Positions 1,901 through 32,000 of a stretch of 32,000 nucleotides of DNA are shown here, in pieces. The notes below the pieces were generated by a model. That model ran no database searches and was not told where the DNA came from. It saw only the letters and a list, made by a program, of their open reading frames with translations. A program made the translations under genes and the position numbers. Source of the DNA: Rhizomicrobium sp. (lineage in GTDB: Bacteria; Pseudomonadota; Alphaproteobacteria; Micropepsales; Micropepsaceae); contig DASZBL010000024.1 in NCBI GenBank assembly GCA_035944195.1, positions 8,720 through 40,719 of the forward strand. The letters run 5' to 3'. Within the stretch, counting starts at the first letter, position 1, and every line of letters starts with the position of its first letter.

Positions 1901-1918
1901 TGTTATTATCCCCCTCAC

Positions 1919-7100: not shown

Positions 7101-7126
7101 TTGCAGCAATTCCGATTTGGCCGGAG

Positions 7127-8287: not shown

Positions 8288-8304
8288 TGTCGTTTCCCCC
8301 TCAC

Positions 8305-11643: not shown

Positions 11644-11683
11644 TTCCCCCTCCTTGCGGTTTTCACCGCCCTGTTTTTGAAAC

Positions 11684-13245: not shown

Positions 13246-13404
13246 CCCCCGTGAGCTTCCTGCCTTTCGAGGGTTGAAGCTTACGCCTACATGTGGGTAG
13301 ACAATGAAGGTCGCCGCCGCCGGGGTTGGGCGGAAAAATAATTTCGATGCGGCGGCGCAGCATCGGAATTTGCTAGGAAATCCACGGCTAATCGCTATAC
13401 AGCG
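13246..13404 (-). promoter_or_regulatory. Leader/promoter region of the cassette-2 sigma gene
   Basis: Minus-strand reading contains ATTATTTTTCCGCCC, TTCATTGTCTACCC and CAACCCTCGAAAGGCAGG. These match the boxes at 474-600 and 19660-19800. Confidence 0.3.
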
Positions 13405-13437
13405 CAAAACAAAGGCGGCGGATTCGCATCCGCCGCC
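13405..13437 (-). terminator. Rho-independent terminator closing cassette 3
   Basis: Perfect 10-bp stem GGCGGCGGAT / ATCCGCCGCC (13414-13423 / 13428-13437) with loop TCGC. On the minus strand it is followed by TTTGTTTTG, about 25 nt downstream of the OMP stop at 13463. Confidence 0.75.
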
Positions 13438-13462
13438 CGTTATCAAGAAGAACTTCTGCCCG

Positions 13463-14620
13463 TCAGTCGCCTATGCCAACACTGATACTCGCGAAGGTGC
13501 CGAAGAAGCCACGGTTCTCGGATTTGCGCGCATCGATGCCGCCATCCATGGCGCCGAAGAAGAAGTCGGCCTTGTAGCCGAAGCTCATTTTGAAATCCTG
13601 CAACCGCCACGACAGCCCAACCGAACCTCCGAGATTGGGAACGGTCACGCCGCGCGAGCGCGCGTGTGTGGCGGCAAATTGCGCAGTTGTATGTGGCACC
13701 GCAGTTTGGCGGAAGACCGAGACAAGCCCATATCGCGCCGTCGATTGATGATGCGTCTTGGCTTTTTGCCGGCCGAACAAAAGGGCTCCGTTGATTGCCC
13801 AATCCGCTATGATCTCGCCATCCTGAACATTGCCGGCGAGCGGAACAGAGGATTTCCACGAGAGCGACGGTCCGACACCGCTGAAGCTGCGCTCGGCAAC
13901 CAGGCTCGCACGATTGGTGTGGAACGGCTGATTTAGGAGATGGAGGTGATAACCATAGTACGTTATGTATTTGTGCTTGAACTGCCAGTCCGGATCGGAT
14001 TTCAACGCGAAATTGGACATGCCCTTGAATTGCGCGAAGCGCATACCAACACTGACCGAGGACGAACCATCCTGATTTCCGAACAGACCAAGCCCCAAAT
14101 CTTTCCCCGCCTGGAAATCGAGAATGACGTGTTTTTCGCTGTTGTGCGCTTGCGTCTCCGCAAATCTATGCGCAACCGGACTATCCAATACTTTAATAGT
14201 AGGACGGCTAGTCAATGGATATTTGTAAGTCGGCACCGGGCTCGTCTGCTGGTCTTCATGCTTGTAGGACTTCGAACGGCCATACTGGATCGATGCGCTG
14301 AACGACCAATCGGAATTTTCGGGCTCGAAAGATAGCCTGCCATATTCATCGATGCTGTAGCGCGGCGGCTTTTCGAATTTCTGCGAAGGTTCGAAAATCG
14401 TCGGGCGGCTAGCCAGGAGCGGCGGTGCGAAAGTTTCCTGACCGTCCTGCAATTGGCTGAACTGCCCGCCGAGTTCAATCCAAACCGTCGCACGATCCAC
14501 ATCTTCCGCGCGGGCAAAACCAAGCGATGAGGTATATGCAAGCGCCAAGGCGGAGGCGCCAGTCAGTAACTTCCAGCGGATCGTAACGCGATTATCGTTT
14601 TTGTTGATGAGTTCGCTCAT
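13463..14620 (-). CDS. Putative outer-membrane beta-barrel (porin-like) protein, paralog 3
   Basis: Track ORF 13463..14638. Preferred start is ATG 14620 (MSELINKNDNRVTIRWKLL...) after GGGGGGTAGAA. Ends ...FFGTFASISVGIGD. Confidence 0.8.
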   Translation of the reverse strand: MSELINKNDNRVTIRWKLLTGASALALAYTSSLGFARAEDVDRATVWIELGGQFSQLQDGQETFAPPLLASRPTIFEPSQKFEKPPRYSIDEYGRLSFEPENSDWSFSASIQYGRSKSYKHEDQQTSPVPTYKYPLTSRPTIKVLDSPVAHRFAETQAHNSEKHVILDFQAGKDLGLGLFGNQDGSSSVSVGMRFAQFKGMSNFALKSDPDWQFKHKYITYYGYHLHLLNQPFHTNRASLVAERSFSGVGPSLSWKSSVPLAGNVQDGEIIADWAINGALLFGRQKAKTHHQSTARYGLVSVFRQTAVPHTTAQFAATHARSRGVTVPNLGGSVGLSWRLQDFKMSFGYKADFFFGAMDGGIDARKSENRGFFGTFASISVGIGD

Positions 14621-14631
14621 TTCTACCCCCC

Positions 14632-17600: not shown

Positions 17601-18042
17601 CGGTGATGGCAATCGGAACCGTTTGGATATCACCTTTGATCTTTGAGGATGTGACGACCACGCTTTCAATTCCCGCCGCCGCCGCTGCTGCCACCCTCAC
17701 TGGAGTTGTTGGCATCAATTCGTTGACGCGCTGGGAGGGTTCGTCGTGAACCACGGCGATGGCGCCTGTTGGCGTGCGATGCGGTGAAAATCCTGTACCT
17801 TCCAGGATGCGCGAGAGTGCGGCCGTCGCAGTGAGTTCGCCTTTCGCGCCTTTGGTGCGCGCGCCCTTGATGGCTTCATCCGACACAATCAGCGGAATGA
17901 CGGCCTGCATCGAATAGGCATTGAGCGCGGTCTCCAGATCGCCGCCCGGAATGTTGAAATTCGCGGCGAATGCGCTTGCGCTCAGCGCAATTGCCGACAC
18001 GCCCCCTGCGAGCGCGGATTTCAGAATGTTGGATTTTCTCAT
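14632..18042 (-). CDS. TonB-dependent receptor with STN signalling domain, ~1136 aa, paralog 3
   Basis: Track ORF 14632..18093. Preferred start is ATG 18042 (MRKSNILKSALAGGVSAIALSASAFA...) after AGGGGGGAGTG. It has the same plug and C-terminus as its paralogs, plus extra Cys/Gly/Thr-rich loop insertions. Ends VRVTKNW. Confidence 0.93.
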   Translation of the reverse strand: MRKSNILKSALAGGVSAIALSASAFAANFNIPGGDLETALNAYSMQAVIPLIVSDEAIKGARTKGAKGELTATAALSRILEGTGFSPHRTPTGAIAVVHDEPSQRVNELMPTTPVRVAAAAAAGIESVVVTSSKIKGDIQTVPIAITALSQEQLTSRQIAGGPDLVKEVPNLTFSKTNFSGYTIQIRGIGTQAISVTTDPAVAVALNDIPFIRNHFFEQEFFDVNQVEVLRGPQGTLYGRNATAGVVNVISAKPTDQFEAMASADFGNYHNRRFEGMVNIPVVDDRADLRIAGEWTKRNGYSTNALTSSPIDGRDLWSTRVTLAIKPSEKLQAWVVWEHCQESDDRLRTSKQLCKTAPIPTNINGAYVPPPSPPLGYSGAIYLSQSCLPVSLYDKGDPAHGDYGAFGVPNGYTLPYYEPLGFEGVPITAEFNAFDPYANQSQSTHLRVIETTVPPIYKAKNDTIELNADYSVAPDLTFTSQTGYNHDFLWSTEDYNRFNTRPGAFTVDDSGRNTTTAEPNLGVYYDSGKNCTTPGSFTPGEGYCSPIGIFCDPQLGCSDRLVAQDLNDEKAWQLSQEFRLASNFSGPLNFSIGGNFLHYETEENYYVFINSLTMAIYTSVHSGVVSADSDQTQPWVAGVSDNSNCMAGGLEPPNPNIPSHTGVEGQIPCGYIDPNPLSHLNNEGHNYFLSQNPYTLNSYAGFGEVYYNVANDLKLTGGLRFTDDQKHFLDIPSQLLTGGYGYSVTRIVDQKWNELTGRLATNWTPKLDFTDQTLVYGSYAHGYKAGGANPPGATLLEFNNTGISDPIHPLTFKPEFVDAYELGTKNTAFDGGLTLNGDVFFYNYKAYQISRIVDRTSINDNFDATVRGAEVEAMWEPTPGLKFNFAGDYEDTRIDNGQSSIDLMDRADLAEHPDWMVVKPFVTQASNCILPVYVMAALVTVAPPTGTGYGVRTVPGACSTAYQYGLDPVTYNTYKANPKFPDDYIDGAAGSLYDPGPYPGWDPATAPNHGEGWAKNLGGNELPNAPHFTTSLSADYTMPVSEDWAATAHTDLYWQSQSWARVFNDRPYDKIRGYSNVNLALILTSASGWQAMGYLKNVFNTTTITGDFLNSDDSGLTTNVFLTDPRLFGVRVTKNW

Positions 18043-18094
18043 CACTCCCCCCTTCGTGCGGCTTCTCGCCACTGATTGCATTTGCCCCCGCACC

Positions 18095-19078
18095 TCAGCG
18101 CGAGATCAGAATTTCGGCTCCGCGGTTCTGCACATGCAGGCGAAACACGGTTTGCACCGCGTCGGTGAACGCATGCACATCGCCGGTCGGAAATGTTCCG
18201 TCGATCGTCAACTGCTCGGCAGCAGGATCGGCGATGGTGAGTTTGGTCTGGTTGTAGCGGTTAAACTCCGCAGCCGCGGCGGCGAGCGTGGTGTGTTTGA
18301 AAATCAGCACCCCGCGCCGCCAGCTAAGCTCGTTGGAAAGCGCGCGCTGCACGCCTTTGGCGACGGACATCGTGTTCGCGGTTGCCGTTGCGACATCGCC
18401 TGCCGACAACATCGCCGATTGCGCGGGCGTTTGTTTGTCCGCGGCGTCCACCCAAACGCGGCCCTGCACTACGGCGACCTGAAGCCGCCCTGAATCGCTG
18501 CGCACCAGGAATTTCGTTCCGAGATCGGTGACGCGATGACCGCCCGCGATCACGATGAAAGGATGCACGGTGTCGTGCTTTACCTGAAAATAGGCCTCAC
18601 CCTTTTCCAGCCAGACCACGCGCTCCTGCGTCGTCATACGCGCGCGCAGTCGCGTGTTTGTGTTCAACTCGATGCGCGAACCGTCGGTGAACGCAATGGA
18701 TTCATGCCCGCCAACCGATGTCGAATAGACGCGATCTTCCGGCGCCGACAAGAAAAACGCTACGCCAGCACCCAAAACCACGATGACGGCTAACGCCGCC
18801 GCCATCCGGAAAAAATTGCCGGAGAGCCGCCCGCTCTGCGCAAATTGTTCGCGTGCGGGCGGGCGCAATGCACCCAAGAGATCGGTGTGTCCCCACGCGC
18901 CGTTCAGCCGCCAATAAGCGATGCGATGGGCCGGCGATTCTTCCAGCCAAGTATTCAACGCCGCCTTGCCGGCATCGTCCCAATCCTCGCGGTCACTGCG
19001 TTCAATCCAGGATGCCGCCTGCGCGTTGATTTCTCTCGCGCTCGCTTCGACTTTCTGTTGGGGGTTTGCGTCGCTCAT
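18095..19078 (-). CDS. FecR-like anti-sigma factor, paralog 3
   Basis: Track ORF 18095..19243 is over-extended into the sigma gene. ATG 19078 (MSDANPQQKVEASAREINAQAASWIERSDREDWDDAGKAALNTWLEESPAHRIAYWRLNGAW) recreates the ATGA overlap with the sigma stop that cassette 2 shows (cassette 1 has the equivalent 4-nt GTGA overlap). Confidence 0.9.
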   Translation of the reverse strand: MSDANPQQKVEASAREINAQAASWIERSDREDWDDAGKAALNTWLEESPAHRIAYWRLNGAWGHTDLLGALRPPAREQFAQSGRLSGNFFRMAAALAVIVVLGAGVAFFLSAPEDRVYSTSVGGHESIAFTDGSRIELNTNTRLRARMTTQERVVWLEKGEAYFQVKHDTVHPFIVIAGGHRVTDLGTKFLVRSDSGRLQVAVVQGRVWVDAADKQTPAQSAMLSAGDVATATANTMSVAKGVQRALSNELSWRRGVLIFKHTTLAAAAAEFNRYNQTKLTIADPAAEQLTIDGTFPTGDVHAFTDAVQTVFRLHVQNRGAEILISR

Positions 19079-19659
19079 GCGCGCTCCCCCAAAACTGCGA
19101 TGTCGCCATAGAGCGTGTTGGCGAGCACGGCGATGCCGTTCGCCAGATGTTCGGATACGGTGTCCTGACTGATGCCCATGCGCGCGGCGATTTCGGGCCG
19201 GGACAATCCTTCGATCCGCCTGAGCACCACCACTTCGCGGCAACGCGGCGGCAGACGATCGAGCGCGGTTTGCAGGCGGCGCAGCAAATCGCGCGCAATC
19301 ACATTGCGATCCGGTCCCGGTACTTCGATGGCGGCACCCAGCGCATCCAGATCGGCCACGGCCTCGATCGGCACGACGTGTTCGCGGCGCACGCGATTGA
19401 TGAGAAGATTGCGCGCGGTGCGCAGTAGAAATGCCTTGGGCTGCGCGGGAACTTCCTTCCGCGCCGCTTCATAGACCCGCACATAGACTTCCTGGCGCAA
19501 ATCCTCGATCTCGCTTTTGTTGCGCCAGCTCTGTTGGAGGAAATGCATCAATATCGACTCCAGCGGAAAAATCTCGCGCAGAAACCAGGCCTCCAGATCG
19601 GACGCGCTCATGCACGCACCCGAGGCGCCGCTCTCATTGATCTCCGGTCTCTCGGCCAT
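19075..19659 (-). CDS. ECF (FecI-type) sigma factor, cassette 3
   Basis: MAERPEINESGASGACMSASDLEAWFLREIFPLESILMHFLQQSWRNKSEIEDLRQEVYVRVYEA...; region 4 is REVVVLRRIEGLSRPEIAARMGISQDTVSEHL. Confidence 0.9.
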   Translation of the reverse strand: MAERPEINESGASGACMSASDLEAWFLREIFPLESILMHFLQQSWRNKSEIEDLRQEVYVRVYEAARKEVPAQPKAFLLRTARNLLINRVRREHVVPIEAVADLDALGAAIEVPGPDRNVIARDLLRRLQTALDRLPPRCREVVVLRRIEGLSRPEIAARMGISQDTVSEHLANGIAVLANTLYGDIAVLGERA

Positions 19660-21194: not shown

Positions 21195-21216
21195 GGCGGC
21201 TTCAGCCGCCGTTTTT
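21195..21216 (+). terminator. Rho-independent terminator for the plus-strand pair; the hairpin overlaps the stop codon of the convergent patatin gene
   Basis: GGCGGC-TTCA-GCCGCC (21195-21210) followed by GTTTTTGTTT. The loop TTCA contains the complement of the patatin TGA stop (21202-21204). Confidence 0.6.
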
Positions 21217-22353
21217 GTTTGGGGAGAAATCCGCCGGATCGATCAGGCGCTCCGCCGCCAGACGGCCGATCTCATAAGCACGCGGGATGATATCGGGATC
21301 GTCCATCAGGCGCAGTTTCGCGATTTCGGAATCCGAAACAGCGATATCCAGTTCCTGTTTCAGCCAATCGGCTTCCAATTGCACATCATAGCGCTGAAAG
21401 CCGAACAGCGGCGTCGCGAACGGCGTATTGTCGTTCGCAAGCGTGCCTATCTCGCTGTTGATGGGCGAAGAGGAATGCGTGCCCGATAGCCAATGCAGCA
21501 GCGTCAACGCGTGGGTTTCGGTATCGGCAACGAGCCCAGTCAGCGCATGAACCGCCAGCGCCGCCGAAGGCAGATGCTGGGTCGCGGCATGGGTGAGCCG
21601 TCGGCGATGTGATCCCGTTCCCACCGAGACAATGGAAAGATTTTCCTTTCCCAGCGGCCAGCGCAGCCCGAAACCATCCAGCGCCGCCATCAATAGAAGC
21701 TGCAGCGATGGATTGTTGTGCGGGCTGACGCCGCCATCGACAAAAAGTCCCGGCGGCGCGCCCTCGGCGATCATCAGCATTTCCGGATCGAAATAATGCG
21801 GCGCCGCGGTCGAGGCGCGCACCAGATGCGCGAGCTTGAATGCATGATTGCCGATATAGGAACTATCCTGCGGCGTTTGCCAATAATGCGCGCGCGGATT
21901 GTTGCTGATGATCCACGGGCTTCCCGTATCCATGCGCTTTGTCACCACCGCGAGGCCGGTGAGCAGATCGGGCGTATCCAGCGTGCGCTGGCCGATCACC
22001 GTATCGAGTTCGCGTTGCAGCAGCGTGGAATCGAATTTCGCTTGCAGCCCAATAACGCGCCACGAATTGTGTTGGAAAGCGCGCGGCCCCATGCGCATGT
22101 AGAAATCATGTACGTCCGCCGCGCTATGACCGAGCGCCAGCGCGGTTGCGATGATGGCGCCCGTCGATGTGCCGCCGATCAGGTCGAAATGGTCGCAGAG
22201 GCGAATCTTGCCGTTGGCGCTGAGAATTTTTTCGATGCGTTCGAGAAACGCAATGGTGATCGCGCCGCGCACGCCGCCGCCGTCGAGCGACAGGATGCGC
22301 TTCGGGCCAGGGCCGAAGAGATGGCGATCCCGGCTGGACATTTCATCGTTCAT
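21202..22353 (-). CDS. Patatin-like phospholipase (383 aa), last gene of the operon
   Basis: Oxyanion-hole motif LDGGGVRG (res 23-30), nucleophile elbow GGTSTG with Ser63 (nt 22165-22167), and catalytic Asp in FVDGGVSPHNNP (Asp206, nt 21736-21738). ATGA overlap with the upstream gene stop. Confidence 0.93.
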   Translation of the reverse strand: MNDEMSSRDRHLFGPGPKRILSLDGGGVRGAITIAFLERIEKILSANGKIRLCDHFDLIGGTSTGAIIATALALGHSAADVHDFYMRMGPRAFQHNSWRVIGLQAKFDSTLLQRELDTVIGQRTLDTPDLLTGLAVVTKRMDTGSPWIISNNPRAHYWQTPQDSSYIGNHAFKLAHLVRASTAAPHYFDPEMLMIAEGAPPGLFVDGGVSPHNNPSLQLLLMAALDGFGLRWPLGKENLSIVSVGTGSHRRRLTHAATQHLPSAALAVHALTGLVADTETHALTLLHWLSGTHSSSPINSEIGTLANDNTPFATPLFGFQRYDVQLEADWLKQELDIAVSDSEIAKLRLMDDPDIIPRAYEIGRLAAERLIDPADFSPNKNGG

Positions 22354-24272
22354 GGTAAGCGTTCCGCGACGGCGCGCTCATCTACCCACGCTGCGAACGC
22401 GCTGCCCAATGCATTTTCCATCGCTTCCATTTCTGCGGGTCTCGTGCCGGAGTGCAATATCGCCCAGACATGCGCGCCGCTCGCTTCTGCGGCGCGGCGC
22501 GCAACTTCAGCATCGGCGGGTTCGGCGAGCAGCACAAGATTTTCGCCGGGCGCGGCTTGCAAATTTGTTTCCGTGCCGCTGACAATCCGGTTTCGCCGGA
22601 TGGATTTTCCCGCGGCGGCAAGAATAGCAGCGATGCTGCGCACTAGATCGCGATTGGTTTGGCGCGCCTCTTCGCCAAGCGCGTCCCATTCCACCAGCAA
22701 AGGATGGCGGCGGATCAGGTCGTCGCGCACCGCGCCATATTGCCAGCCGAGCAGTCTCTGCTCGATGCACCAGCGCTGATGCTCCATTTGCGTGAATATC
22801 TCAATCTCGTCTTCTCGCAACGCAGCGCCCGCACCCGCCTCGCCGATGTCGAGCCCAAACCGCGCCAGCTTGACGGCAATATGATCGGCAAAAAGCCGGT
22901 TGGAGCGCTTCATGCGCTCCGGCAACCTATCCCATGATTGCGAATTGCCATGTCCGCGCGCATAGACTTCGTGGGTGGCGCGCGCCAGACGATCAACCGG
23001 ATTGTGCAGCAGTAATTGGGGATCGGCCATCAATCCGCCGCTGCCGAAAGTGACGAAACGGTCGCTCGACGGTCGGCGCTTTTCGGTTTTTTCGATGAAG
23101 GCTCCCAGTTCCGGCCGCTTCTGCGCGCGCGCATAAATGGGCACATTGAAAAGCCCCGCCAGATCCGATTGCCGCCGGAAATCGAGCGCTGCTTCGATAT
23201 TGATTGTGTCCTGCCCGGTCGTGATCACCACCGCGTCCGGCGCTCCTTCAGAAAGTAACCCGGATATGAATTCGCGATCGTCTGCGGGCCCGAATTCACG
23301 CTCGTGGAACGACAGATCGGCCAGATCGAACAGCGCCGGCCATTGCCGCTTGATCGCAGCAGTTGCGGCAGCGATATTCTTGTCGGCAATCGCAACGGAA
23401 AGCCTCGTTCCAGGAATGGCGAAATAGCCCTGCACTGCTTGAATCAGAATTTCGAGCCCCATCTTGCCGAGACCCACCATCACCAGCCGCGGCTTCACGG
23501 ACGGAAGCGGCAGCAATTTGCGCCGGGCAGACCAGCCATTGAGCAGCGCACGCGCGGCACTCTCATAGAAATTCACAACGATGAATTCAGCCTTGTCCGT
23601 GCTTAGCGAGGCGGTGTACCCCGCAATCGCATGCAGCAGCCAGGCGTCGCGCACTTCGCACAGGATGCGTAGCGGTTTTCCGGCAGGCCGCGCAGCACAG
23701 GCATCGCGCGCGCGCAGTGCTATCTCAAGATTCACGGAATCGGACCCGCAGGAAACCACCAGCGTGGTTGCCTTCAGCAATCCGGCGAGTTTCAGCAGAT
23801 GCACGTCCGCGGCGCTGCCTTGCAGCACGGGAACGCCCGCCAATTCCACCGGCATCGAATTTTCGCAAGCCGCATCGGATTCGATGGCGACGACATGCTG
23901 CCTGGCCGCCCTTTGCCCGAGCGCGATGGTGCGCCCGGTTTGTCCCAATCCGCTCACGATCACATGGCCGCGCGCGCGACGTGCCAGCGCCACGCGCATG
24001 TCGCGGCGGATATGCAGCAGCAGCAATTTCGCGGCGCCGAAAAGCGCGATGCCCGGCACCAGCCATTGCGCAATCGCCAATTGCCAGGGATGCGAATAGC
24101 TGGCGCCGCCGCGAACGAGGCTGAAAGCGCGCAGCATCTTGTCGACCGGCGTGACGACATGACAATCGCTGCAAACGGAAAATCCCCAATAGGCCAGACC
24201 GAGCGCGATCGCGGCGATGGGTATAAAGACGTACCAGTTGCTGGGACTGGAGGGACTTTTTTGCGGCGTCAT
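22350..24272 (-). CDS. Membrane protein (640 aa): 2 TM helices + two Rossmann (TrkA-N/RCK-like) domains + RyR-like repeat module + short C-terminal alpha/beta extension
   Basis: TM1 WYVFIPIAAIALGLAYWGF and TM2 LAIAQWLVPGIALFGAAKLLLL. GxGxxG motifs VIVSGLGQTGRTI (nt ~23934-23951) and LVMVGLGKMGLEI. RyR-like module (res ~425-552, nt 22617-23000): LARATHEVYA...WDRLPERMKRSNRLFADHIAVKL...EIFTQMEHQRWCIEQRLLGWQYGAVRDDLIRRHPLLVEWDALGEEARQTNRDLVRSI. ATGA overlaps at both ends. Confidence 0.85.
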   Translation of the reverse strand: MTPQKSPSSPSNWYVFIPIAAIALGLAYWGFSVCSDCHVVTPVDKMLRAFSLVRGGASYSHPWQLAIAQWLVPGIALFGAAKLLLLHIRRDMRVALARRARGHVIVSGLGQTGRTIALGQRAARQHVVAIESDAACENSMPVELAGVPVLQGSAADVHLLKLAGLLKATTLVVSCGSDSVNLEIALRARDACAARPAGKPLRILCEVRDAWLLHAIAGYTASLSTDKAEFIVVNFYESAARALLNGWSARRKLLPLPSVKPRLVMVGLGKMGLEILIQAVQGYFAIPGTRLSVAIADKNIAAATAAIKRQWPALFDLADLSFHEREFGPADDREFISGLLSEGAPDAVVITTGQDTINIEAALDFRRQSDLAGLFNVPIYARAQKRPELGAFIEKTEKRRPSSDRFVTFGSGGLMADPQLLLHNPVDRLARATHEVYARGHGNSQSWDRLPERMKRSNRLFADHIAVKLARFGLDIGEAGAGAALREDEIEIFTQMEHQRWCIEQRLLGWQYGAVRDDLIRRHPLLVEWDALGEEARQTNRDLVRSIAAILAAAGKSIRRNRIVSGTETNLQAAPGENLVLLAEPADAEVARRAAEASGAHVWAILHSGTRPAEMEAMENALGSAFAAWVDERAVAERLP

Positions 24273-24952
24273 GCGGGCTCTTTCTGGCGCGACGAAAGGC
24301 AGCCACGCTCCAGCGCCATCATGTTGGCACCCAGGCTTTCGGCTCCCGCTTTGTCGTTCGATGTCACCAGTAGCGCTACGTGCTGCACGGCGACGAGGCG
24401 CTTGAGATCGGCCTGCAATTCCGCGCGCGCTTCGGGATCGAGACCTTCGAACGGCGCGTCGAGCATGACGATGTGCGGTTCGGTGATGAGCGCGCGCGCC
24501 AGGAGCGCCCGCTTGGTGAGACTGGCGGAAATCTCATTGCTCTGCGCATTGCGCCACGGATCGAGATCAAAATTGATCAGGCAATGTTCCAGCCGCTTCT
24601 CGATTTCGCTGTCGGCGAGTTCCAGTTTGCAAAGCGGGAAGGCGAGATTTTCCGCGAGCGTCAGATCATGCAGCAGCGCGCCGTTTTCCAGCACAAGCCC
24701 GATATGACGGCGCAGCTTGTGCCATTCATGTTCCGGCAAATTCTCGGCCGCCTCGCCCGCGATCTGCAAGTGACCTTCCGAGGCGCGCTCGAGGCCCGCG
24801 AGCAGGCGCAACAAAAGCGTCTTGCCTGAGCCGCTGCGCCCGACAATAGCCATGCATTGGCCGCGTTCCAGCGTGAAGGAAATATCGTCGAGCACGCGTG
24901 CGCCACCGCGCATGAGCGCCAGGCCGCGCGCCTCGATCATGATCTCGCTCAT
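24269..24952 (-). CDS. MlaF-like ABC ATPase subunit with degenerate catalytic motifs (227 aa)
   Basis: Track ORF 24269..25747 is over-extended across the permease gene. ATG 24952 (MSEIMIEARGL...) overlaps the permease stop as ATGA. Walker A GRSGSGKT is intact (nt 24818-24841). Signature is ISASL rather than LSGGx (24518-24532). Walker B is IVMLDAP, with Ala where the catalytic Glu should be (24455-24457). H-loop is VTSND, with Asn for His (24356-24358). Confidence 0.88.
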   Translation of the reverse strand: MSEIMIEARGLALMRGGARVLDDISFTLERGQCMAIVGRSGSGKTLLLRLLAGLERASEGHLQIAGEAAENLPEHEWHKLRRHIGLVLENGALLHDLTLAENLAFPLCKLELADSEIEKRLEHCLINFDLDPWRNAQSNEISASLTKRALLARALITEPHIVMLDAPFEGLDPEARAELQADLKRLVAVQHVALLVTSNDKAGAESLGANMMALERGCLSSRQKEPA

Positions 24953-25740
24953 GCGCCTGCCCCGGCGAAGATCGCGGCAGCGCCGAATATCGCGAGCAGC
25001 GAGATCACGAAGGTCCGCCACGCAGCGGCTTCGAGCGTTTGCGGATCGCGGCCTGCGCCGCTGCCTTCGGCAGAGGCGATGCCGAGCGCGAGCATCGCAT
25101 AAACTTCCACGCGCAGGAACCCAAACCAGAAATCGCTGCGTGCGCCTTCGGCAAAAACGATCGTCGTATAGCGGGCAACAGGAATCGCCTCGAATTGCTG
25201 TAGCGTGAGCGCGGCTGCCAAATGCGCGATGCCGTCTCCCCAAACCAGCAATGCCGCCGCCGCAAAGAGGAATGCGAGCAAGCTCGCGGGCAATACATGA
25301 TCGGCCGGGTCCACACCCATCAGGCGCAGGGAATCCACTTCGCCGCCTGCGATCATGCGCCCAATTCGCACGGCGAGTGCCACGCCCGAGCGCCCGGCGA
25401 CGAAAATCCCGATCAGCACCGGCATCACTTCGCGCATCAGTGCCGAGCGCAACGCTCGCAATAGCGGTTCTTCCAGATTCACAACATGAAACGCCCGCGA
25501 CACGCTGAAGGCTAGCACCAGCCCCGTCAGCGCGGCCAGCATGGTGACGATGGGCAAGGGACGCAATGCGGTGTCGGAGAGCGCATCCACCGTGCGGCGG
25601 CGCGCAAACCTGTCGCCGCGCAGCAGCGCCGGAAGGCCGACAAATGCGGCTTGCAGGAAAAATGCGAACAGGCCGACATTCTCCACGCCACCCTGAATCG
25701 CGCGACCGCCGGCATTTCTGATGTCCCCGATCATTGCCAT
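24949..25740 (-). CDS. MlaE-like ABC transporter permease
   Basis: Polytopic hydrophobic protein of MlaE-like size (263 aa). It carries the MlaE-type core REVMPVLIGIFVAGRSGVALAVRIGRMIAGGEVDSLRLMGVDPADHVLPASLL. The start is 25740, or 25734 which would give an ATGA overlap with the upstream stop. Confidence 0.85.
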   Translation of the reverse strand: MAMIGDIRNAGGRAIQGGVENVGLFAFFLQAAFVGLPALLRGDRFARRRTVDALSDTALRPLPIVTMLAALTGLVLAFSVSRAFHVVNLEEPLLRALRSALMREVMPVLIGIFVAGRSGVALAVRIGRMIAGGEVDSLRLMGVDPADHVLPASLLAFLFAAAALLVWGDGIAHLAAALTLQQFEAIPVARYTTIVFAEGARSDFWFGFLRVEVYAMLALGIASAEGSGAGRDPQTLEAAAWRTFVISLLAIFGAAAIFAGAGA

Positions 25741-27323
25741 GGCGCACGCCTCAGAGCACCGTTCAAATCGAGTTCGATTATGCGAGCAGCGCTTTGCGAA
25801 GTGGCACTTCCGATTTGAATGACGAAATCGGCTGCGGCGGCAGACGACACCAAAATGGTTTCGGCCCTCCCCGCCAGAGCGATTGCTTCGGGCGGAAGAT
25901 TCTCGTTCGGCTGAACGATCACGCTTAATTTGGCTTTGGCGAGGGCGATCTCGGCGGCGCGGCGCTGAACGGGGGATGCAAGCGCCGTGCGCAATACAAG
26001 CACGCGCTCCGGGTAGCGCTTCGTCAAATCATCTAATAGATACGGAAAGCCTGTGTCGAAGCCACTTTGGGGCGCGCCGCCGCCATGAAGCGCCAGCGTG
26101 AGATCGCGCAGGATCGTCTGCTTCACGCGGTCGAGTTGGGCGGGAATGGCGCGCACCGAAAGCCGGTCGAGATCGCGGATTTCGGGCGTCAGCGATTCAT
26201 AGGGAACCAGCAGCGGCGTCAGCTTCGCGGCATCGTCGCGCGTTTCGCCATAGCGCCAGCCATCCAGCATCTGCACGGCAGCCCAGCGCTGATGCTCCAT
26301 TTCGGCGAGCGCTTCCCGTTCTTCCGTCGTGAACGCGAAGCGCGGGCCGCCATCCGCCGGAACGATGTGGCAGGAAATCGCCGCGAGCTTGCAGGCGATG
26401 TGATCGGCCTGATGGCGCGACGCGGCGCGGAAGCGCTCGGGCAGCGCGTCCCATGGCTGCATGCTGGGACGAATGCCGATTGTGTGGCCCGCTTGCCGCC
26501 GCTCTTCGAGATAGAGTTCGTGAATGGCCTGCGCCTGCAAATCGGCGGGGTCTGAAAACAGCGCCGCCACGGCCTCGCGCCAATCGGTTTGCAGCACGGC
26601 AATCGTTCCGGCGGGTGCTGGGCCAGCGCAAGGAAGCCAGTAGACCGGCACAAACCAATCGGGATGTTTCTGCGCATTCCATATCGCAGCATCGGCGACA
26701 TAGATAGCGGATGCAGCGCCATCCCAGTTTTCGGTTGCCGCAAGCGTTCCGATTTCTTTCAGCGCGGGCAACGAAGATGTAAGCGCATCGAGCCAGCGTT
26801 CGCCGCCCACAATCGTCGCGCGCGGCTTGACGCCGGGCAAATGCATCATGCGGAAAAGCTGAAGCAGAATTTGCTCGGCTTCCGCGCCCGTGCCGAAAAT
26901 AACCGGCTGCGGTGCTTGCGCGTCATAGTTCAACCGGCCGAATGGATGATCGAGCAGCAGACGCCGCGCCATGCGCTGCGATGCCGATAGTGGGCGCACG
27001 CGCAAACCATTGCCGGTTTCTGAATCGAAATCCTGTATGGCAGTGAGCGCGGCTTGCGTTTCCGCGGCAATGGCGAAAATTGTTTGCTGCCCGGAGATCT
27101 GCCAGCCTGCAGCCGCCTTACGCGCTGCATCGAGATCGGTCTGTTCGTCGCCGCTGGCGAATATCACGCAGGTGGGTGATTTTTGATCAGAAAGCGCCGC
27201 AACATCGGGCAAACGCGTGACGTGATAGCCTGCGCCTATCGCGCCTTGCACAATCGGCTCAACCGCACCCACAACGACAAGCTCGCCGCCCGGCTTAATC
27301 GCGCGTTGCAGCCATTTCAGCAT
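25731..27323 (-). CDS. Soluble paralog (530 aa): two degenerate Rossmann-like domains + RyR-like repeat module + C-terminal alpha/beta extension
   Basis: Track ORF 25731..27686 is over-extended across the lipoprotein gene. ATG 27323 (MLKWLQRAIKPGGELVVVG...) overlaps the lipoprotein stop by 7 nt. RyR-like module (res ~262-396, nt 26136-26540): QAIHELYLEE...WDALPERFRAASRHQADHIACKL...ALAEMEHQRWAAVQMLDGWRYGETRDDAAKLTPLLVPYESLTPEIRDLDRLSVRAIP. It is collinear with the 22350-24272 protein. No TM helix was seen. Confidence 0.82.
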   Translation of the reverse strand: MLKWLQRAIKPGGELVVVGAVEPIVQGAIGAGYHVTRLPDVAALSDQKSPTCVIFASGDEQTDLDAARKAAAGWQISGQQTIFAIAAETQAALTAIQDFDSETGNGLRVRPLSASQRMARRLLLDHPFGRLNYDAQAPQPVIFGTGAEAEQILLQLFRMMHLPGVKPRATIVGGERWLDALTSSLPALKEIGTLAATENWDGAASAIYVADAAIWNAQKHPDWFVPVYWLPCAGPAPAGTIAVLQTDWREAVAALFSDPADLQAQAIHELYLEERRQAGHTIGIRPSMQPWDALPERFRAASRHQADHIACKLAAISCHIVPADGGPRFAFTTEEREALAEMEHQRWAAVQMLDGWRYGETRDDAAKLTPLLVPYESLTPEIRDLDRLSVRAIPAQLDRVKQTILRDLTLALHGGGAPQSGFDTGFPYLLDDLTKRYPERVLVLRTALASPVQRRAAEIALAKAKLSVIVQPNENLPPEAIALAGRAETILVSSAAAADFVIQIGSATSQSAARIIELDLNGALRRAPWQ

Positions 27324-27934
27324 CGCGCGGATTGCGGCGCGTTGACCGCGCTCGCGGCCATGTCTTGTGTGAGATGCACAAGCACCTGACGAAATGCTTC
27401 GTCGAACGCCGCCTCGATTCCTGCCGCACCATCGCCGGCCCGCGGCTGCTGTGCGCAATAAGAGCCCATCAGAAACGCCTGCCGCTGCGGCCCTTTGAGA
27501 ATGGTCACTTCCAGATCGACAATCGCCGTGCCGTCTGCGGAAAGCTCGAAGCGGTCGAGCCGCGCCGAGAGCATGTAGTCCGCAATTCCCGGCAGATCGG
27601 GCGCAAATACGGCGTCCGCGATCTTTGCCGCGCGCAATACCTGCGTGACGACGATGGAAGCGGCCTGCGGCGGGGTTTCCTCCCACAGGAAACTTGCCGA
27701 TTGCTTGCGCTCGTTGGGCGCTTGCGCGTCGAAATAGACCAGACGCCGCTCGCCCAGAAGACCGCGCGCCTGAAATGGCTGCACCTGGAGCGCGCCTTGC
27801 AAATGCGTGGCGGCAACAGGCATTTCGGACGGCGCATCCAGCCGCATGTTGCGGCTTTCCGGTGCGGTGCTGCAGGCCGCCAGCATCGACGCCGCAAACA
27901 GCACAACCAATCGAAAGGAAGAAATGTTTCGCAT
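27317..27934 (-). CDS. ABC-type transport auxiliary lipoprotein (PqiC/YmbA-like, DUF330-type)
   Basis: Lipoprotein signal peptide with lipobox LAAC (Cys21, nt 27872-27874). About 200 aa, positioned directly after an MCE gene as is usual for this family. Begins 3 nt after the MlaD-like stop. Confidence 0.75.
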   Translation of the reverse strand: MRNISSFRLVVLFAASMLAACSTAPESRNMRLDAPSEMPVAATHLQGALQVQPFQARGLLGERRLVYFDAQAPNERKQSASFLWEETPPQAASIVVTQVLRAAKIADAVFAPDLPGIADYMLSARLDRFELSADGTAIVDLEVTILKGPQRQAFLMGSYCAQQPRAGDGAAGIEAAFDEAFRQVLVHLTQDMAASAVNAPQSARC

Positions 27935-27937
27935 GCG

Positions 27938-28867
27938 CTATCTCGGTTTGGTGTCGGCTGGATCGCCAAGCGCGCGGCCGCTGACCATCGCGCGTGGATC
28001 GTCGCGAAGCTTGGCGGTGATCTCCTTCAGATCGGCACTCGCCGCCTGCATGTTCGCAGCGATGGAGGCCATCGATGTCGCGGTCACGCCCAGAATATAG
28101 CGCAGATCGGTGACCGACGAACCCACCGGCTCCGCATTTTTGTGCACCAGCCCGTTCATTTCGGTGGCAGCGAGACTTGCCTGCTTGGACGTGGCCGCAA
28201 GATTGTCGATCATCGATGCGATCTGGCGCTGGCGCTTGTCGTTCAGCAAGCCGCGCGCGGTTTCGCTGATAGCCTGCACATTGGTCAGCGTTGCGTTCAT
28301 GCGCGCGATGAGCGCGACCGATCCGTTCGCCGAAGCGCCGCCGGCCTTAATCTCTTCCGGCGTCGGTGCCAGCGCACGCAGCACGGTGTTCACGCGTTCA
28401 ACCGTATCGCGGGTGGTGTTGATCGTCTGCAGGGTCAGCTCGATCATGCTGGGATGATGCCCGCAACCGCGCAATTGCGCGCCCGGCAGCGAAGGGTCGT
28501 AAGTGGGTTCGGGACAATCCTTGCCGCGCGCGATGCTCAAGGTCGCGGGTTGCAGCGGATTGGGCGCGTCGATCACCAGCCCGACATCGCGCATATCCTC
28601 CGTCTGCCAATCGGGATCGAGCCGCACGCGCACCAGAAACCGCCGCTCGCGCAGATGCTGCTCGATGCGCGTGACATGGCCGATCACGAAGCCTTCATCT
28701 TTTACCGCCGCGCCTTCGCCCAGATTGGCAACGTTCTTGAATACCGCGACATAAGGATGGCGCCGGTCCAGCACCTCTGGCGCGAAGGCAGCGACAAGCG
28801 CCACCACGACCAGAATGGCGATGGTTGCAAGGCCAAGCCGGAATTGCAGAACAGGATCAGGACGCAT
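27938..28867 (-). CDS. MlaD/MCE-domain protein (309 aa), first gene of the operon
   Basis: N-terminal TM LGLATIAILVVVALVAAF. MCE-domain signature YVAVFKNVANLGEGAAVKDEGFVIGHVTRIE...RVRLDPDW. A long helical C-terminal region. Confidence 0.85.
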   Translation of the reverse strand: MRPDPVLQFRLGLATIAILVVVALVAAFAPEVLDRRHPYVAVFKNVANLGEGAAVKDEGFVIGHVTRIEQHLRERRFLVRVRLDPDWQTEDMRDVGLVIDAPNPLQPATLSIARGKDCPEPTYDPSLPGAQLRGCGHHPSMIELTLQTINTTRDTVERVNTVLRALAPTPEEIKAGGASANGSVALIARMNATLTNVQAISETARGLLNDKRQRQIASMIDNLAATSKQASLAATEMNGLVHKNAEPVGSSVTDLRYILGVTATSMASIAANMQAASADLKEITAKLRDDPRAMVSGRALGDPADTKPR

Positions 28868-28991: not shown

Positions 28992-31900
28992 ATGCAGCCA
29001 TTGCGGATTTTTGTCTCTTCGCCCTCGGATGTGAATCCGGAGCGCGCGGCTGCCGCCCGTGTGATCGACAGGCTGGGCCGCGAATTCGGCGGTTTCTTCG
29101 CCATCCAGGCCGAATTGTGGGAGCAGGAGCCGCTGCGCGCCACGGCGGATTTTCAGGGGCAGATCCCGCGCCCCTCAGAAGCCGATATCGTGCTGGTGGT
29201 GGTGTGGTCGCGATTGGGCACGCGGCTGGCGCCGGGCAGCTTCAAGGGCTCACTGAGCGGCGGTGCGGTGACCGGCACCGAGTGGGAATTCGAGGATGCC
29301 GCCCGCAGCTTTCGCGAGCGCGGCGTGCCCGATCTGCTCTTCTATCGCAAGACCGCGCGCATCGACATCGCACTTGGCGATGATAATGCCATCGAGCAGC
29401 GGCGCGAAGAAAAGCGTCACCTCGATCAATTCCTGCAGAGCTGGTTCTTCACCGAGACGGCGGAGTTCAAGGGCGCGTTTTCGTCTTTCACCACCACGCA
29501 TGAATTCGAACTCATCGTTGAGCAGCATCTGCGCAAGCTTATTCAGGCGCGCGTGAATGCGCTGGATGTGGCCTCCGCTCAGGCCCCGCCGGCGCGCTGG
29601 CAGGGCGGCTCGCCGTTCCGCGGGCTCGAGCCGTTCGACGTGGAACATGCGGGAATTTTCTACGGCCGCAGCCGCGCGCGCATGGAAGTGCGCGAAGCGT
29701 TGACAACGCGCGCCGCGCAAGGCGCTGCGTTTGTCTTGCTGCTCGGGATGAGCGGTTCGGGAAAATCCTCGCTGGTGCGCGCGGCGTTGATCCCAGATCT
29801 CGCCGTGCCCGGCATGATCGAGCAGGTGGGATTGTTCCGCTATGCGCTGCTGCGGCCTTCGGATTCGCCTGCCGATCCGCTCGCCGCATTGGCCGAGGCG
29901 CTGATTGCGGATTCGGCGCTGCCCGAATTGGAAAGCATGGGTTGGAATGCCGCGCGAATTGCAGAGCAGCTTGGCTCCGCGCCTGAAGATATGCTGCCGG
30001 TTCTCGAAGAAGCATTGGAAAAGGCAGGCGTCGCAGCGGGCCTTCTGGAAGGCGCAAAGGCGCGGCTGTTGCTCGCTGTCGATCAACTCGAAGAATTGTT
30101 CACGCTGACGGGCCTTGAACCCGAAACGCGCGACCGCTTTATCAATGCGCTGCATGTTCTGGCGCGCAGCGGCACGGTGTGGGTCATCGCCACAATGCGC
30201 AGCGACATGTTCCATCATCTGGCGTCGGCGCCGCGGCTCGCGGAACTGGCGGAAGGTGTGGGCCAATATCATTTGCTGCCGCCGCAGCCTTCGGAGATTT
30301 CGCAGATCATCCGCGAGCCGGCATCGGCAGCGGGCCTGCGCTTCGAGATCGACCCGAAAACCAATGTCGGGCTCGATGAAGTTTTGCATGAGGCGATGGA
30401 AGATGATCCCGCGGCGTTGCCGCTGCTCGAATTCACGCTGGACGAATTGTTCAAGACGCGCACGGCGCGCGGCGTGCTGACTTACGAAGCCTATAATCGC
30501 CTCGGCGGAATCGAGGGCGCGCTGGCGCGGCGCGCGGAAGATGTTTTCGCGGGCCTTCCCGGCGATACGCAGAATGCCTTTGCTTCCGTCGCGTGTGCGC
30601 TTGTCGTGCAGCAGCGTGGCAGCGGCGGCGGATTCGCGGCGCGGCGCGCACCCTGGAGCGAATTTGCGAACGATTCCGCGCGCGCGGCATTGGTGGATGC
30701 TTTCGTCGCGGCGCGCCTCTTCGTGACCGATGCGGGCGAAGGCAGTGCGCGCACCATTCGCGTGGCGCATGAAGCGTTGTTCCGTTGCTGGCCTCGCATG
30801 CGCGAGGCGCTGGAGCGCGATGCGGCATTTCTCGTCGCGCGCGAAAGGCTGGCAACCGCTACTGAGCGCTGGCTTGCCGAAGACCGCGCGCCCGATTTCC
30901 TGCTGCAAGAGGGCCGCGTTCTGGCGGAAGCCGAAGAATTGCTGCAGACGCGCGGCAATGACCTCGACCCCACCGTACAGGAATTCATCGCCACTTCGGC
31001 AGAGGCCGTACACAGGCGGCGCACGCGCGGTTTGCGCTGGGCCCGCGCAATTGCTGCGGGGTTTGCGCTGATTGCCATAATCGCGGGGGGGGCCGGATGG
31101 TTCGCCTTGCAAAATCGCGACGCGGCCGAGCACGCGCGCAATGAAGCGGTTGAGCGGCGCGACGGCGCACTGCGCTCGGAAAGTTTTTTCCTGGCGGCAC
31201 TTTCCTACAAATCGACCAAATCGGGCGATCCTGTCAGCGGCGCGCTGCTGGCGCGCGCAGCCATGCCTCGCGAGATTGCCAAACCCGACCGCCCCCTGGT
31301 GAATGAAGCGCGCGATGCGCTGGCCTACGCGCTGGCGAGTTTGAAAGAGGAACGCGGCGTTATCCGCCATTCGGGCGACAAGGTGCAGGCGTCTTTTTTC
31401 CCCAACGGCACGGTCGGAAGCATCGGCGGCAATGATCCGCTGCGTCTGTCGCGCGTGCCTGACGGCAAGGAGATCGCGCATTTCGGAGACCACGCGCCCG
31501 GCAATGCATGGATCAACGACGATGGCAGCCAGATCATTCTGCTCGATGGCGAAAATCTGAAATTCTTCGACAGCGCGACGGGAAAACAGACAAGACAGCT
31601 CCCGCTGGCCAAGCGCGCCGACGGTCTGGTGAATGTCATTATAGATACACCCCTGTCGCGCGCAGCACTTTATTATGCGGGCGCTGGCGCGGAATTGATC
31701 GCGCTGCCGCATGGGCGTGTGCTGACGAAATTCGGCAATGCTTCGCCCGTTCTGCTGATGCAGCTTGCGGGCAAATCCTTGCTGTGGGCCGATGTGGCGG
31801 GCGATTTGGTTTTGCAGAACGCAAGCGACGGCGGCGGGATACGCCCGCTTGTCGGACATAAAGGGATGGTGACGGCGATTGCGTTGTCGCCCGATCTCGC

Positions 31901-32000
31901 TGCGAGCGGCGGCATCGATGGAACGGTGCGGCTTTGGTCGATAGCGGATGGAAGCCCGCGCGGCGTGTTCCAGCATGGCAGCCCGGTGCTGAATCTTCAG
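28992..32000 (+). CDS. TIR-like/DUF4062-like N-terminal domain + STAND P-loop NTPase (nSTAND1-like) + TM helix + WD40 repeats; partial (open at the right window edge)
   Basis: Not in the ORF track because there is no stop in the window. I read frame 0 from ATG 28992 to 32000 codon by codon over most of its length and found no stop (1003 codons). N-terminus: MQPLRIFVSSPSDVNPER...ADIVLVVVWSRLGT...GTEWEFEDA...PDLLFYRK. NTPase entry motif SPFRGLEPFDVEHAGIFYGR. Walker A GMSGSGKSS (29745-29768). Walker B LLLAVDQLEELF (~30066-30101). TM WARAIAAGFALIAIIAGGAGWFAL (~31038-31112). WD40 blade GHKGMVTAIALSPDLAASGGIDGTVRLWS (~31854-31940). Confidence 0.85.
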   Translation, partial: MQPLRIFVSSPSDVNPERAAAARVIDRLGREFGGFFAIQAELWEQEPLRATADFQGQIPRPSEADIVLVVVWSRLGTRLAPGSFKGSLSGGAVTGTEWEFEDAARSFRERGVPDLLFYRKTARIDIALGDDNAIEQRREEKRHLDQFLQSWFFTETAEFKGAFSSFTTTHEFELIVEQHLRKLIQARVNALDVASAQAPPARWQGGSPFRGLEPFDVEHAGIFYGRSRARMEVREALTTRAAQGAAFVLLLGMSGSGKSSLVRAALIPDLAVPGMIEQVGLFRYALLRPSDSPADPLAALAEALIADSALPELESMGWNAARIAEQLGSAPEDMLPVLEEALEKAGVAAGLLEGAKARLLLAVDQLEELFTLTGLEPETRDRFINALHVLARSGTVWVIATMRSDMFHHLASAPRLAELAEGVGQYHLLPPQPSEISQIIREPASAAGLRFEIDPKTNVGLDEVLHEAMEDDPAALPLLEFTLDELFKTRTARGVLTYEAYNRLGGIEGALARRAEDVFAGLPGDTQNAFASVACALVVQQRGSGGGFAARRAPWSEFANDSARAALVDAFVAARLFVTDAGEGSARTIRVAHEALFRCWPRMREALERDAAFLVARERLATATERWLAEDRAPDFLLQEGRVLAEAEELLQTRGNDLDPTVQEFIATSAEAVHRRRTRGLRWARAIAAGFALIAIIAGGAGWFALQNRDAAEHARNEAVERRDGALRSESFFLAALSYKSTKSGDPVSGALLARAAMPREIAKPDRPLVNEARDALAYALASLKEERGVIRHSGDKVQASFFPNGTVGSIGGNDPLRLSRVPDGKEIAHFGDHAPGNAWINDDGSQIILLDGENLKFFDSATGKQTRQLPLAKRADGLVNVIIDTPLSRAALYYAGAGAELIALPHGRVLTKFGNASPVLLMQLAGKSLLWADVAGDLVLQNASDGGGIRPLVGHKGMVTAIALSPDLAASGGIDGTVRLWSIADGSPRGVFQHGSPVLNLQ

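Follow-up and report, generated by a model that had tools for sequence, protein, structure and literature searches.

A filter-less RCK-type membrane protein with a ryanodine-receptor-like module, a candidate effector of NAD-derived conflict signalling in Rhizomicrobium

Three findings converge on the subject of this report: proteins with RyR domains bind isomers of cyclic ADP-ribose (cADPR), the DUF4062 domain is a TIR-like enzyme that cleaves nicotinamide adenine dinucleotide (NAD), and there are TIR systems that employ membrane or ion-channel effectors. That subject is a 640-amino-acid protein (the target) encoded on the reverse strand of a 32,000-nucleotide stretch of DNA from Rhizomicrobium sp. 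(the window), in which two transmembrane (TM) helices are followed by two RCK-type Rossmann domains and a RyR module. A literature search returned no description of a bacterial TrkA_N-RyR architecture, and the features of its sequence, together with the NAD-cleaving immune genes that neighbour its relatives, indicate that the target is probably an undescribed membrane effector that is switched on by an NAD-derived alarm molecule.

Described ligand-binding proteins form part of the background. [quoted passage not shown] ADPR sits in the same pocket in RyDEP and in these homologues. The pocket residues H75, W78, H100 and D117 are common to Repeat12 of the animal ryanodine receptors, and in RyDEP they provide the His/Asp dyad of a glycosidase (PMC13232231). 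That paper does not discuss host membrane proteins with RyR domains. Among structures in the PDB, RyR3 Repeat12 binds ATP or ADP, and the titles of entries 4gx1 and 4gx2 indicate that the RCK domain of the channel GsuK binds NAD+ and ADP.

Described defence systems form the other part. The DUF4062 domain, also called NIR, is a TIR-like NADase that yields ADPR and is found in Avs-like and other defence proteins (10.64898/2026.05.01.722283; 10.64898/2026.09.04.749371). Thoeris systems of type VII, which pair a TIR protein with a SLATT protein and use canonical cADPR, and of type X, which pair a TIR protein with an 'ion channel' termed ThsK and whose signal is unknown, have both been validated (10.64898/2025.12.03.692087). 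In the same study, the candidates named 'SLOG and 4TM' and 'SLOG Patatin' gave no defence as two-gene constructs, and there is no mention of RyR or TrkA domains.

We favour a reading in which the target serves an anti-phage conflict system, either Thoeris-like or Avs-like, as its membrane effector or as its sensor and in which the signal is an NAD-derived nucleotide, and we regard this proposal as evenly poised between right and wrong. The body of the protein would be derived from an RCK-gated cation channel with two TM helices and a pore loop whose K+ filter has been lost, and the cytoplasmic RyR (Repeat12-like) module would be the receptor for a signal of the ADP-ribose type.

Anatomy of the target protein

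The reading frame of the target was chosen as a real gene by a codon log-odds gene caller whose training set was the called genes of related contigs. An AlphaFold2 (AF2) model was built on 21 homologues and has a predicted local distance difference test (pLDDT) score of 84 and a predicted TM-score (pTM) of 0.79. The following parts can be distinguished, and the evidence for each is given in brackets.

22350..24272 (-): target gene, 640 amino acids, with two TM helices, a TrkA_N (RCK) Rossmann domain, a second Rossmann domain, a RyR (Repeat12-like) module and a C-terminal alpha/beta domain (open reading frame, Pfam, AF2, Foldseek)
24174..24245 (-): TM1, residues 10-33 (hydropathy, AF2 helix 10-33, family consensus W..LG.WGF)
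24090..24149 (-): helix 42-53 and loop 54-61 between the TM helices, at the position of the pore helix and filter of K+ channels (AF2, conservation, hhalign)
24009..24089 (-): TM2, residues 62-88, running as one helix to residue 99 and into Rossmann domain 1 (hydropathy, AF2)
23523..23969 (-): Rossmann domain 1 (TrkA_N/RCK) with GLGQTG at 108-113, acidic residues E131/D133 and a GSA(GDA) motif (Pfam, partial NCBIfam matches, conservation)
23013..23495 (-): Rossmann domain 2 with GLGKMG at 267-272 and D296 (AF2; G267, G269 and D296 conserved)
22608..23012 (-): RyR/Repeat12-like module of two half-repeats, with H434/Y437/W447/R459 in the first and H498/W501/H523/N540 in the second (Pfam, PDB sequence matches, Foldseek, conservation)
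22353..22607 (-): C-terminal domain of beta-alpha-beta-alpha-beta order, residues 556-640, or 556-635 in the AF2 model (AF2; limited to longer members of the family)

By Pfam score and pocket residues, the target is a member of the RyR-domain family. PF02026 matches residues 490-559 with an expectation value (E) of 2.6e-11 and 44.1 bits, compared with a gathering score of 27.4, and the surrounding module is helical in the AF2 model (residues 425-553). Foldseek aligns RyR3 Repeat12 with this part of the model over approximately 188 columns. Sequence matches in the PDB include Repeat12 of RyR1-3, a RyR-domain protein of Bacteroides and 35tm_A, a 139-amino-acid 'RyR domain-containing protein' that matches without gaps (query 495-539 against chain 73-117). 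Through 35tm_A, and with a numbering offset of one residue, RyDEP residues H75, W78, H100 and D117 correspond to H498, W501, H523 and N540 of the target. This mapping is secure because there are three exact identities at the predicted spacing.

Conservation was measured in 153 members of the target's family. In the second half-repeat, H498 (99%), R500 (98%) and W501 (93%) are strongly conserved, position 523 is His, Asn or Ser, and the residue at 540 is mostly either Asp (44% of members) or Asn (42%), the target having Asn. The preceding half-repeat has an invariant set of its own, namely H434 (99%), Y437 (80%), W447 (99%) and R459 (95%), and therefore the module is a tandem unit like Repeat12. 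Because homologues bind ADPR or cADPR isomers and the ligand residues are kept, the RyR module is a likelier sensor in the target than the Rossmann domains. With Asn in place of the catalytic Asp, the target is likelier to bind its ligand than to cleave it as a glycosidase. Relatives of 900-1300 amino acids (P0045, P0056, P0057 and P0069) carry two to four RyR repeats past the TM-TrkA_N body, an arrangement that echoes the animal ryanodine receptors. Extra RyR repeats are the only fusions seen in the long family members, among which there is no fusion to a TIR or SLOG domain.

The Rossmann domains resemble those of RCK and TrkA gating rings. TrkA_N matches residues 104-192 above its gathering score (Pfam E 7.6e-15), and only partial matches to TrkA, KefB and Kch, far below cutoffs, are returned by NCBIfam. 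The two domains extend over residues 104-250 and 262-420 in the AF2 model. Across the family, the first keeps its hallmarks (HVxVCGLGxxG, an acidic residue past the second beta strand, and GDA) and the second retains GxGxxG and the Asp. Foldseek ranks GsuK first among PDB structures (E 1.4e-9), ahead of the TrkA gating ring, Slo2.2/Slo1, KtrA and MthK, and in the PDB sequence search the match to GsuK starts at residue 87, which is the end of TM2. The possibility that these are ordinary dehydrogenase folds was rejected, given that the leading Foldseek matches are RCK/TrkA rings, with no dehydrogenase among them, and that the motifs are those of TrkA_N. No Pfam family, STAS/MlaB included, matches the C-terminal alpha/beta domain of the target or that of its paralogue RyR2, which is described below. 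A SLOG-like identity for these two domains was also considered and is not established (hhalign P=0.59 and P=0.0048).

The hydrophobic segments of the target are located at residues ~13-35 and 67-88 by Kyte-Doolittle hydropathy. In the AF2 model, TM1 is followed by a short helix, a loop and TM2, and the last of these passes straight into Rossmann domain 1 as a single helix (62-99). The segment between the helices that drew attention in the preliminary description of the target, CSDCHVVTPVDKMLRAFSLVRGGASYSHPW, comprises residues 34-63, and the stretch after the second hydrophobic segment, KLLLLHIRRDMRVALARRARGH, is strongly basic. Given the positive-inside rule and this basic stretch, we infer an N-in/C-in topology in which the Rossmann and RyR domains would be cytoplasmic and the CSDC...HPW segment (34-63) would be periplasmic or re-entrant. 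A CxxC pair (CSDC, residues 34-37, 24162-24173 (-)) is present at the predicted outer end of TM1. Its columns hold Cys in about a quarter of the family, and a disulfide or a metal site is possible there.

Conservation of the region between the TM helices is strong, with L52 at 92%, P62 at 77%, L65 at 90%, A68 at 92% and P73 at 80%, and W63 is also conserved. The consensus is S..D.LY.TLQLF.LESG...PWQL.VARFLAP in most members and ...L[IV][RK]G.G.Y...PWQLV.AQ in the clade of the window. At the filter position, the target reads LVRGGAS and most members read LF.LESG, neither of which is a Gly-rich filter, and a TVGYG-like filter between the helices is absent from the target and from all 153 members. 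This failed filter test places the target outside the K+ channel family. There is likewise no Pfam match to Ion_trans_2 or TrkA_C in the target, and a relationship between its TM region and the SLATT modules of the partner proteins described below was sought without signal (hhalign P=0.11). We read the membrane part as the probable descendant of a pore-loop channel whose filter has degenerated. The HVIVCGLGQVG type of TrkA_N domain is elsewhere part of real TVGYG/TTGYG channels. Related TrkA_N domains of this type also occur in separate short membrane proteins of 367-416 amino acids that lack TVGYG (L059 3611-4861, L060 6788-7900 and L062 6719-7822).

The preliminary description had proposed two N-terminal hydrophobic helices, two GxGxxG Rossmann domains, a RyR-like module and a short C-terminal alpha/beta extension, arranged as in RCK-gated channels with two TM helices and lacking a TVGYG-like filter. 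Hydropathy, Pfam, the AF2 model and the structural search bear out each of these features. Its suggestion of a nucleotide-sensing role also remains plausible, and here the emphasis changes, since the likelier sensor is the RyR pocket, for an NAD-derived nucleotide, rather than a site for NAD(H).

Gene neighbourhoods of the family and of the window

The family is large. A word-indexed search yielded 20 relatives of the target, and an exhaustive profile search yielded 3,626 clusters (50% identity) at E<=1e-30. Most clusters are 570-610 amino acids in length, combine the two TM helices with both Rossmann domains and the RyR module, lack the C-terminal domain and end at about profile position 572. 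A census was made of 54 loci with full-length relatives, in which neighbouring genes were called, clustered and checked by Pfam and tblastn. These loci are from Rhizomicrobium and other Alphaproteobacteria, Acidobacteriota (Acidobacteriaceae), Actinomycetota (Acidimicrobiia), Chloroflexota, Verrucomicrobiota, Armatimonadota and others. The partner genes were distributed as follows.

Protein with a SLOG-like Rossmannoid domain (GxTGHR...AEGADR...GRGGT): 34 of 54 loci
TIR_2 protein: 16 of 54 loci
DUF4062-nSTAND1-WD40 homologue: 11 of 54 loci
Patatin: 4 of 54 loci
Mla genes: 4 of 54 loci
At least one conflict-type partner (SLOG-like, TIR, DUF4062-nSTAND1 or patatin): 43 of 54 loci

Partner genes may share the strand of the family member, on either side of it, or be convergent with it, and thus the association does not reflect one inherited gene order. 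The neighbourhood places the target family among conflict systems that use NAD-derived signals, because the usual neighbours are SLOG-like/SLATT, TIR and DUF4062-STAND proteins rather than Mla proteins. The SLOG-like domain is usually fused to two DUF4231/SLATT_1 modules of two TM helices each (E 2e-6 to 1e-4). In Acidimicrobiia (L041, L042, L049 and L051), a stand-alone SLOG-like domain of 159-180 amino acids without SLATT is encoded by the gene directly upstream (gene -1) of a family member of ~570 amino acids. This arrangement points to the SLOG-like domain, and not to the SLATT pore, as the conserved partner.

Two further observations were made among these loci. A conserved protein of ~1300 amino acids without a Pfam match lies beside the SLOG-SLATT, target and TIR genes in several acidobacterial loci (L029 6115-10149; also L023, L026-L028, L030 and L032). 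Locus L037 (8007-9036) has its target homologue in two pieces, reading frames of 212 and 137 amino acids, which may be due to a frameshift or mark a pseudogene. Next come a SLOG-SLATT gene, a gene for an unknown protein of 401 amino acids and a patatin gene, and this is the sole locus with both SLOG-SLATT and patatin.

In the window, the target is the sixth gene of a seven-gene operon on the reverse strand, which is listed here from first to last and followed by the divergent gene at its head.

27938..28867 (-): MlaD/MCE-like protein, a weak assignment (subthreshold match to Pfam MlaD, E 1.1e-4; equivalent gene position occupied in L007, L009 and L080)
27317..27934 (-): ABC_trans_aux lipoprotein (Pfam E 2.3e-12)
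25731..27323 (-): RyR2, 530 amino acids, a paralogue of the target without TM helices (Pfam RyR E 4.4e-16; hhalign)
24949..25740 (-): MlaE-type permease (Pfam E 4.2e-33)
24269..24952 (-): MlaF-like ABC nucleotide-binding domain (NBD) protein (Pfam; its stop overlaps the target start as ATGA)
22350..24272 (-): the target
21202..22353 (-): patatin-like phospholipase with GGGVRG, GTSTG and DGG (Pfam E 4.9e-27; its start overlaps the target stop as ATGA)
28992..32000 (+): DUF4062-like, nSTAND1 NTPase and WD40 gene that runs off the window (nSTAND1 E 1.2e-90; protein start MQPLRIFVSSPSD)

The genes of the operon overlap by 4-10 nucleotides or are separated by a 3-nucleotide gap, and they are translationally coupled. 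The MlaE/F-like genes upstream and the patatin gene downstream were already recognized in the preliminary description, and Pfam assigns them in the same way. Three features extend that account: the TM-less paralogue RyR2, the degenerate MlaF-like NBD and the divergent DUF4062-nSTAND1-WD40 gene. L007/L008, L009 and L080 have the seven genes in the same order, and their proteins are 43-52% identical.

RyR2 is composed of two Rossmann-like domains, a RyR module and a C-terminal alpha/beta domain. It aligns with the target family over positions 13-490 (hhalign prob 100, E 5e-42), and the alignment covers most of the C-terminal domain. Its AF2 model has a pLDDT of 76, and the first of its glycine motifs has degenerated. 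Where RyDEP has its catalytic dyad, RyR2 has H344 and D386 and the membrane protein has H498 and N540. One possibility raised by these residues is a division of labour, wherein RyR2 may be a signal-cleaving copy and the target a signal-sensing copy. No PADLOC model matches RyR2 or distant members of the family.

The MlaF-like NBD has an intact Walker A motif. In the four orthologues, the Walker-B Asp-Glu is replaced within LDAP, FDAP or LDSP, of which LDAP is the variant in the window, and the signature has become ISASL or LSPTV. The NBD is therefore probably non-hydrolysing and unlikely to be a normal transport ATPase, to judge by these motifs. Loss of the H-loop His is confined to the window copy. 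The Mla-type operon of the window lacks an MlaB/STAS gene. The patatin matches a phospholipase effector model of PADLOC (E 8.9e-46) and the NCBIfam model CBASS_lipase below its cutoff.

The divergent gene starts 124 bp from the start of the operon. All four loci of the Mla type carry a DUF4062-STAND gene and none carries a TIR gene, and the STAND gene adjoins the operon in L007/L008, L009 and L080. This gene is a candidate source of the signal for the operon. A comparison was made for the possibility that the N-terminal domain of the STAND protein is an adaptor shared with the operon proteins, and it gave nothing.

Elsewhere in the window (3-19659 (-)) there are more than three tandem cassettes, each with genes for an ECF sigma factor, a FecR anti-sigma factor, a STN-Plug-TonB-dependent receptor (1112-1153 amino acids) and a protein of ~391 amino acids. 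This last protein is outer-membrane-like and has little or no Pfam signal. The array seems to have arisen recently, by serial duplication of an entire unit for surface signalling and uptake.

Readings of the locus

Our preferred reading leads to the following model for the window. The DUF4062-nSTAND1-WD40 NTPase would detect an invader via its WD40 repeats and oligomerize, and its TIR-like DUF4062 domain would then cleave NAD+. ADPR or a derivative would bind the RyR modules of the target and of its soluble paralogue RyR2, and the fall in NAD+ could possibly be read in addition by the TrkA_N Rossmann pockets. The resulting assembly would compromise the membrane, perhaps by an ion leak via the two TM helices, by licensing the patatin and the degenerate Mla-like complex, or by both. 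The model builds on the observed domain anatomy, ligand residues, operon conservation and family-wide neighbourhood, whereas the ligand, oligomerization, ion flux, control of Mla or patatin and defence itself are predictions. In more general terms, the systems would consist of an enzyme that cleaves NAD, which is a TIR protein for most relatives and DUF4062-STAND in the window, pockets for ADPR-type molecules (RyR and SLOG-like) and membrane-active bodies such as the 2TM-RCK module, SLATT and patatin.

There are several observations that weigh against this reading, and some of them concern the proposed pore. AF2 confidence is lowest in the membrane part of the target (pLDDT 55-65), and a profile of this region matches nothing among PDB sequences. 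Alignment by hhalign to the TVGYG pores of TrkA_N-bearing channels from loci L061-L079 is weak (P=0.0045-0.009), with the pore helix in register (D.LY.T against DA.YF..T) and LESG falling on the filter.

Other such observations concern the signal source and the partners. The DUF4062 match in the window scores 20 bits (E 7.9e-4), below the gathering score of 24.7, and spans the full length of the model. The orthologues score 21.6, 23.0 and 25.6 bits, and the Glu-containing motif GTEWEFE of this domain is invariant among them. A profile of the window domain finds nothing in the PDB. The described DUF4062 proteins deplete NAD+ and do not signal (10.64898/2026.05.01.722283; 10.64898/2026.09.04.749371), and for this reason the STAND gene could be a one-gene defence in its own right that just happens to lie next to the operon. 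The window holds no TIR gene and no SLOG/SLATT gene, and 11 of the 54 census loci are without any partner gene. The partner domain is weakly SLOG-like (Pfam YAcAr E 0.22, DprA E 0.002) and has no match in the PDB. No PADLOC model matches the target. Mobility lends no support either, because viral contigs yielded no member of the family and plasmids give only distant or partial matches whose context is uninformative.

A bolder version of the preferred reading can be formulated, and we offer it as tentative and less probable than the reading from which it is extended. The target would then belong to a bacterial ryanodine-receptor-style module in which ADPR or a cADPR isomer, made by a TIR or DUF4062 NADase, binds the Repeat12-type RyR unit and opens a filter-less RCK-ring cation channel, thereby killing or arresting the infected cell. 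Such a module would be the prokaryotic equivalent of animal Repeat12 and of signalling from cADPR to channels, and it might be the origin from which these evolved. In the clade of the window, the pair of tethered and soluble sensors would also command the patatin and a non-hydrolysing, Mla-like lipid conduit.

If the preferred reading holds for the target family, then a large unstudied family, with thousands of clusters across phyla, would constitute a new class of effectors for NAD-derived immune signals. It would also offer a small bacterial model for testing whether ADPR-type messengers act on channels via RyR Repeat12. The failure of two-gene 'TIR + SLOG-4TM' candidates in heterologous tests could be explained if a third gene, of the target family, is required. 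The version with Mla genes and a patatin hints at a lipid-directed mechanism of execution.

The preliminary description favoured a different role, and among the rival explanations this one survives best, even though we consider it unlikely. In the form considered here, the target would be a membrane-anchored nucleotide sensor without a pore of its own, whose cytoplasmic ring, possibly mixed with RyR2, docks on the Mla-like complex or the patatin and controls it, the two TM helices being a mere anchor. The translational coupling of the target to the MlaF-like and patatin genes fits this explanation, as do the conserved seven-gene order in L007/L008, L009 and L080 and the absence of the filter motif. 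An NBD that has lost its catalytic Glu and signature may also need an external regulator. The MthK ring is built from tethered and soluble copies of one cytoplasmic module, and the target and RyR2 are reminiscent of such an arrangement. However, Mla genes and patatin are each found at only four of the 54 loci, so that this cannot be the general role of the family. In addition, the conservation of the helix and loop between the TM helices across phyla, as seen at L52, L65 and A68, exceeds what a simple anchor needs.

We give still less credence to an explanation in which an NAD-derived signal is removed by the RyR modules, be it as enzymes or as sponges, so that the cell protects itself or signalling is brought to an end. 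According to this explanation, the target, and especially RyR2, would be a negative regulator that prevents the auto-activation of effectors such as SLATT or patatin. It draws on RyDEP, which is a glycosidase with a His/Asp dyad and has sponges among its homologues, on the Asp at dyad position 540 in 44% of the family, and on H344 and D386 of RyR2. Yet the target has Asn540, like 42% of its family, and a buffer has no need of the conserved TM helices and two RCK-type Rossmann domains. Furthermore, the SLOG-only partners in Acidimicrobiia offer no SLATT effector to regulate.

Least probable of all is a housekeeping cation channel or regulator of K+ homeostasis that is gated by NAD(H) or ATP via RCK and has conflict-type neighbours by coincidence, because the true TrkA_N domain, with its closest sequence relatives in real TVGYG channels (HVIVCGLGQVG), the source annotations 'Kch' and 'Trk NAD-binding subunit' and the 11 loci without a conflict-type partner are set against a family with no selectivity filter anywhere, an invariant RyR module and conflict-type neighbours at 43 of 54 loci in several phyla and several gene orders.

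Comparison with described systems

The layout that AF2 predicts for the target, TM1, short helix, loop and TM2 followed directly by TrkA_N, is that of the RCK-gated K+ channels with two TM helices, including GsuK of Geobacter, MthK, Kch and the BK/Slo channels. GsuK and Slo also have two tandem domains of the Rossmann/RCK type per subunit, as does the target. The target differs from these channels in that it has no filter, a RyR module is appended, and its context is that of conflict systems rather than ion homeostasis.

The likeness to RyDEP and to RyR Repeat12 lies in the Pfam family (PF02026), in the His/Trp/His of the pocket and in the tandem half-repeats, which are arranged like those of RyR3 Repeat12. 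RyDEP is functionally linked to ADPR-type molecules made by TIR proteins, a link that the target would share. In contrast to RyDEP, the target is encoded by the host, bound to the membrane, fused to RCK domains and has Asn540, and it would serve defence rather than counter it.

Relatives of the target resemble Thoeris types VII and X in having TIR genes as neighbours (16 of 54 loci). They also neighbour genes for a SLOG-like domain, usually with two DUF4231/SLATT modules (34 of 54 loci), which matches the description of 'SLOG and 4TM'. In Thoeris a TIR product gates a membrane effector, and the same logic is proposed for the target family. There are differences as well, since the loci here comprise at least three genes and the window is without a TIR gene.

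With its DUF4062-like N-terminal domain, the divergent gene of the window would have the architecture of the STAND proteins with DUF4062 (NIR) domains, such as Avs2-NIR, Swarozyc and Vulcan/Vesta and the human proteins TEP1 and NWD1. The described systems of this type are self-contained NAD+ depleters, whereas the window gene is conserved beside putative ADPR-sensing membrane proteins. Because of this conserved proximity, the arrangement suggests that the DUF4062 product is also read as a signal by the operon.

Finally, the operon shares with MlaFEDB and other MCE systems the MlaE permease, the ABC NBD, an MCE-like protein and an ABC_trans_aux lipoprotein. It differs from MlaFEDB in that the NBD is without the Walker-B Glu and LSGGQ, there is no MlaB/STAS protein, and genes for two RyR proteins and a patatin are interleaved among the Mla-type genes.

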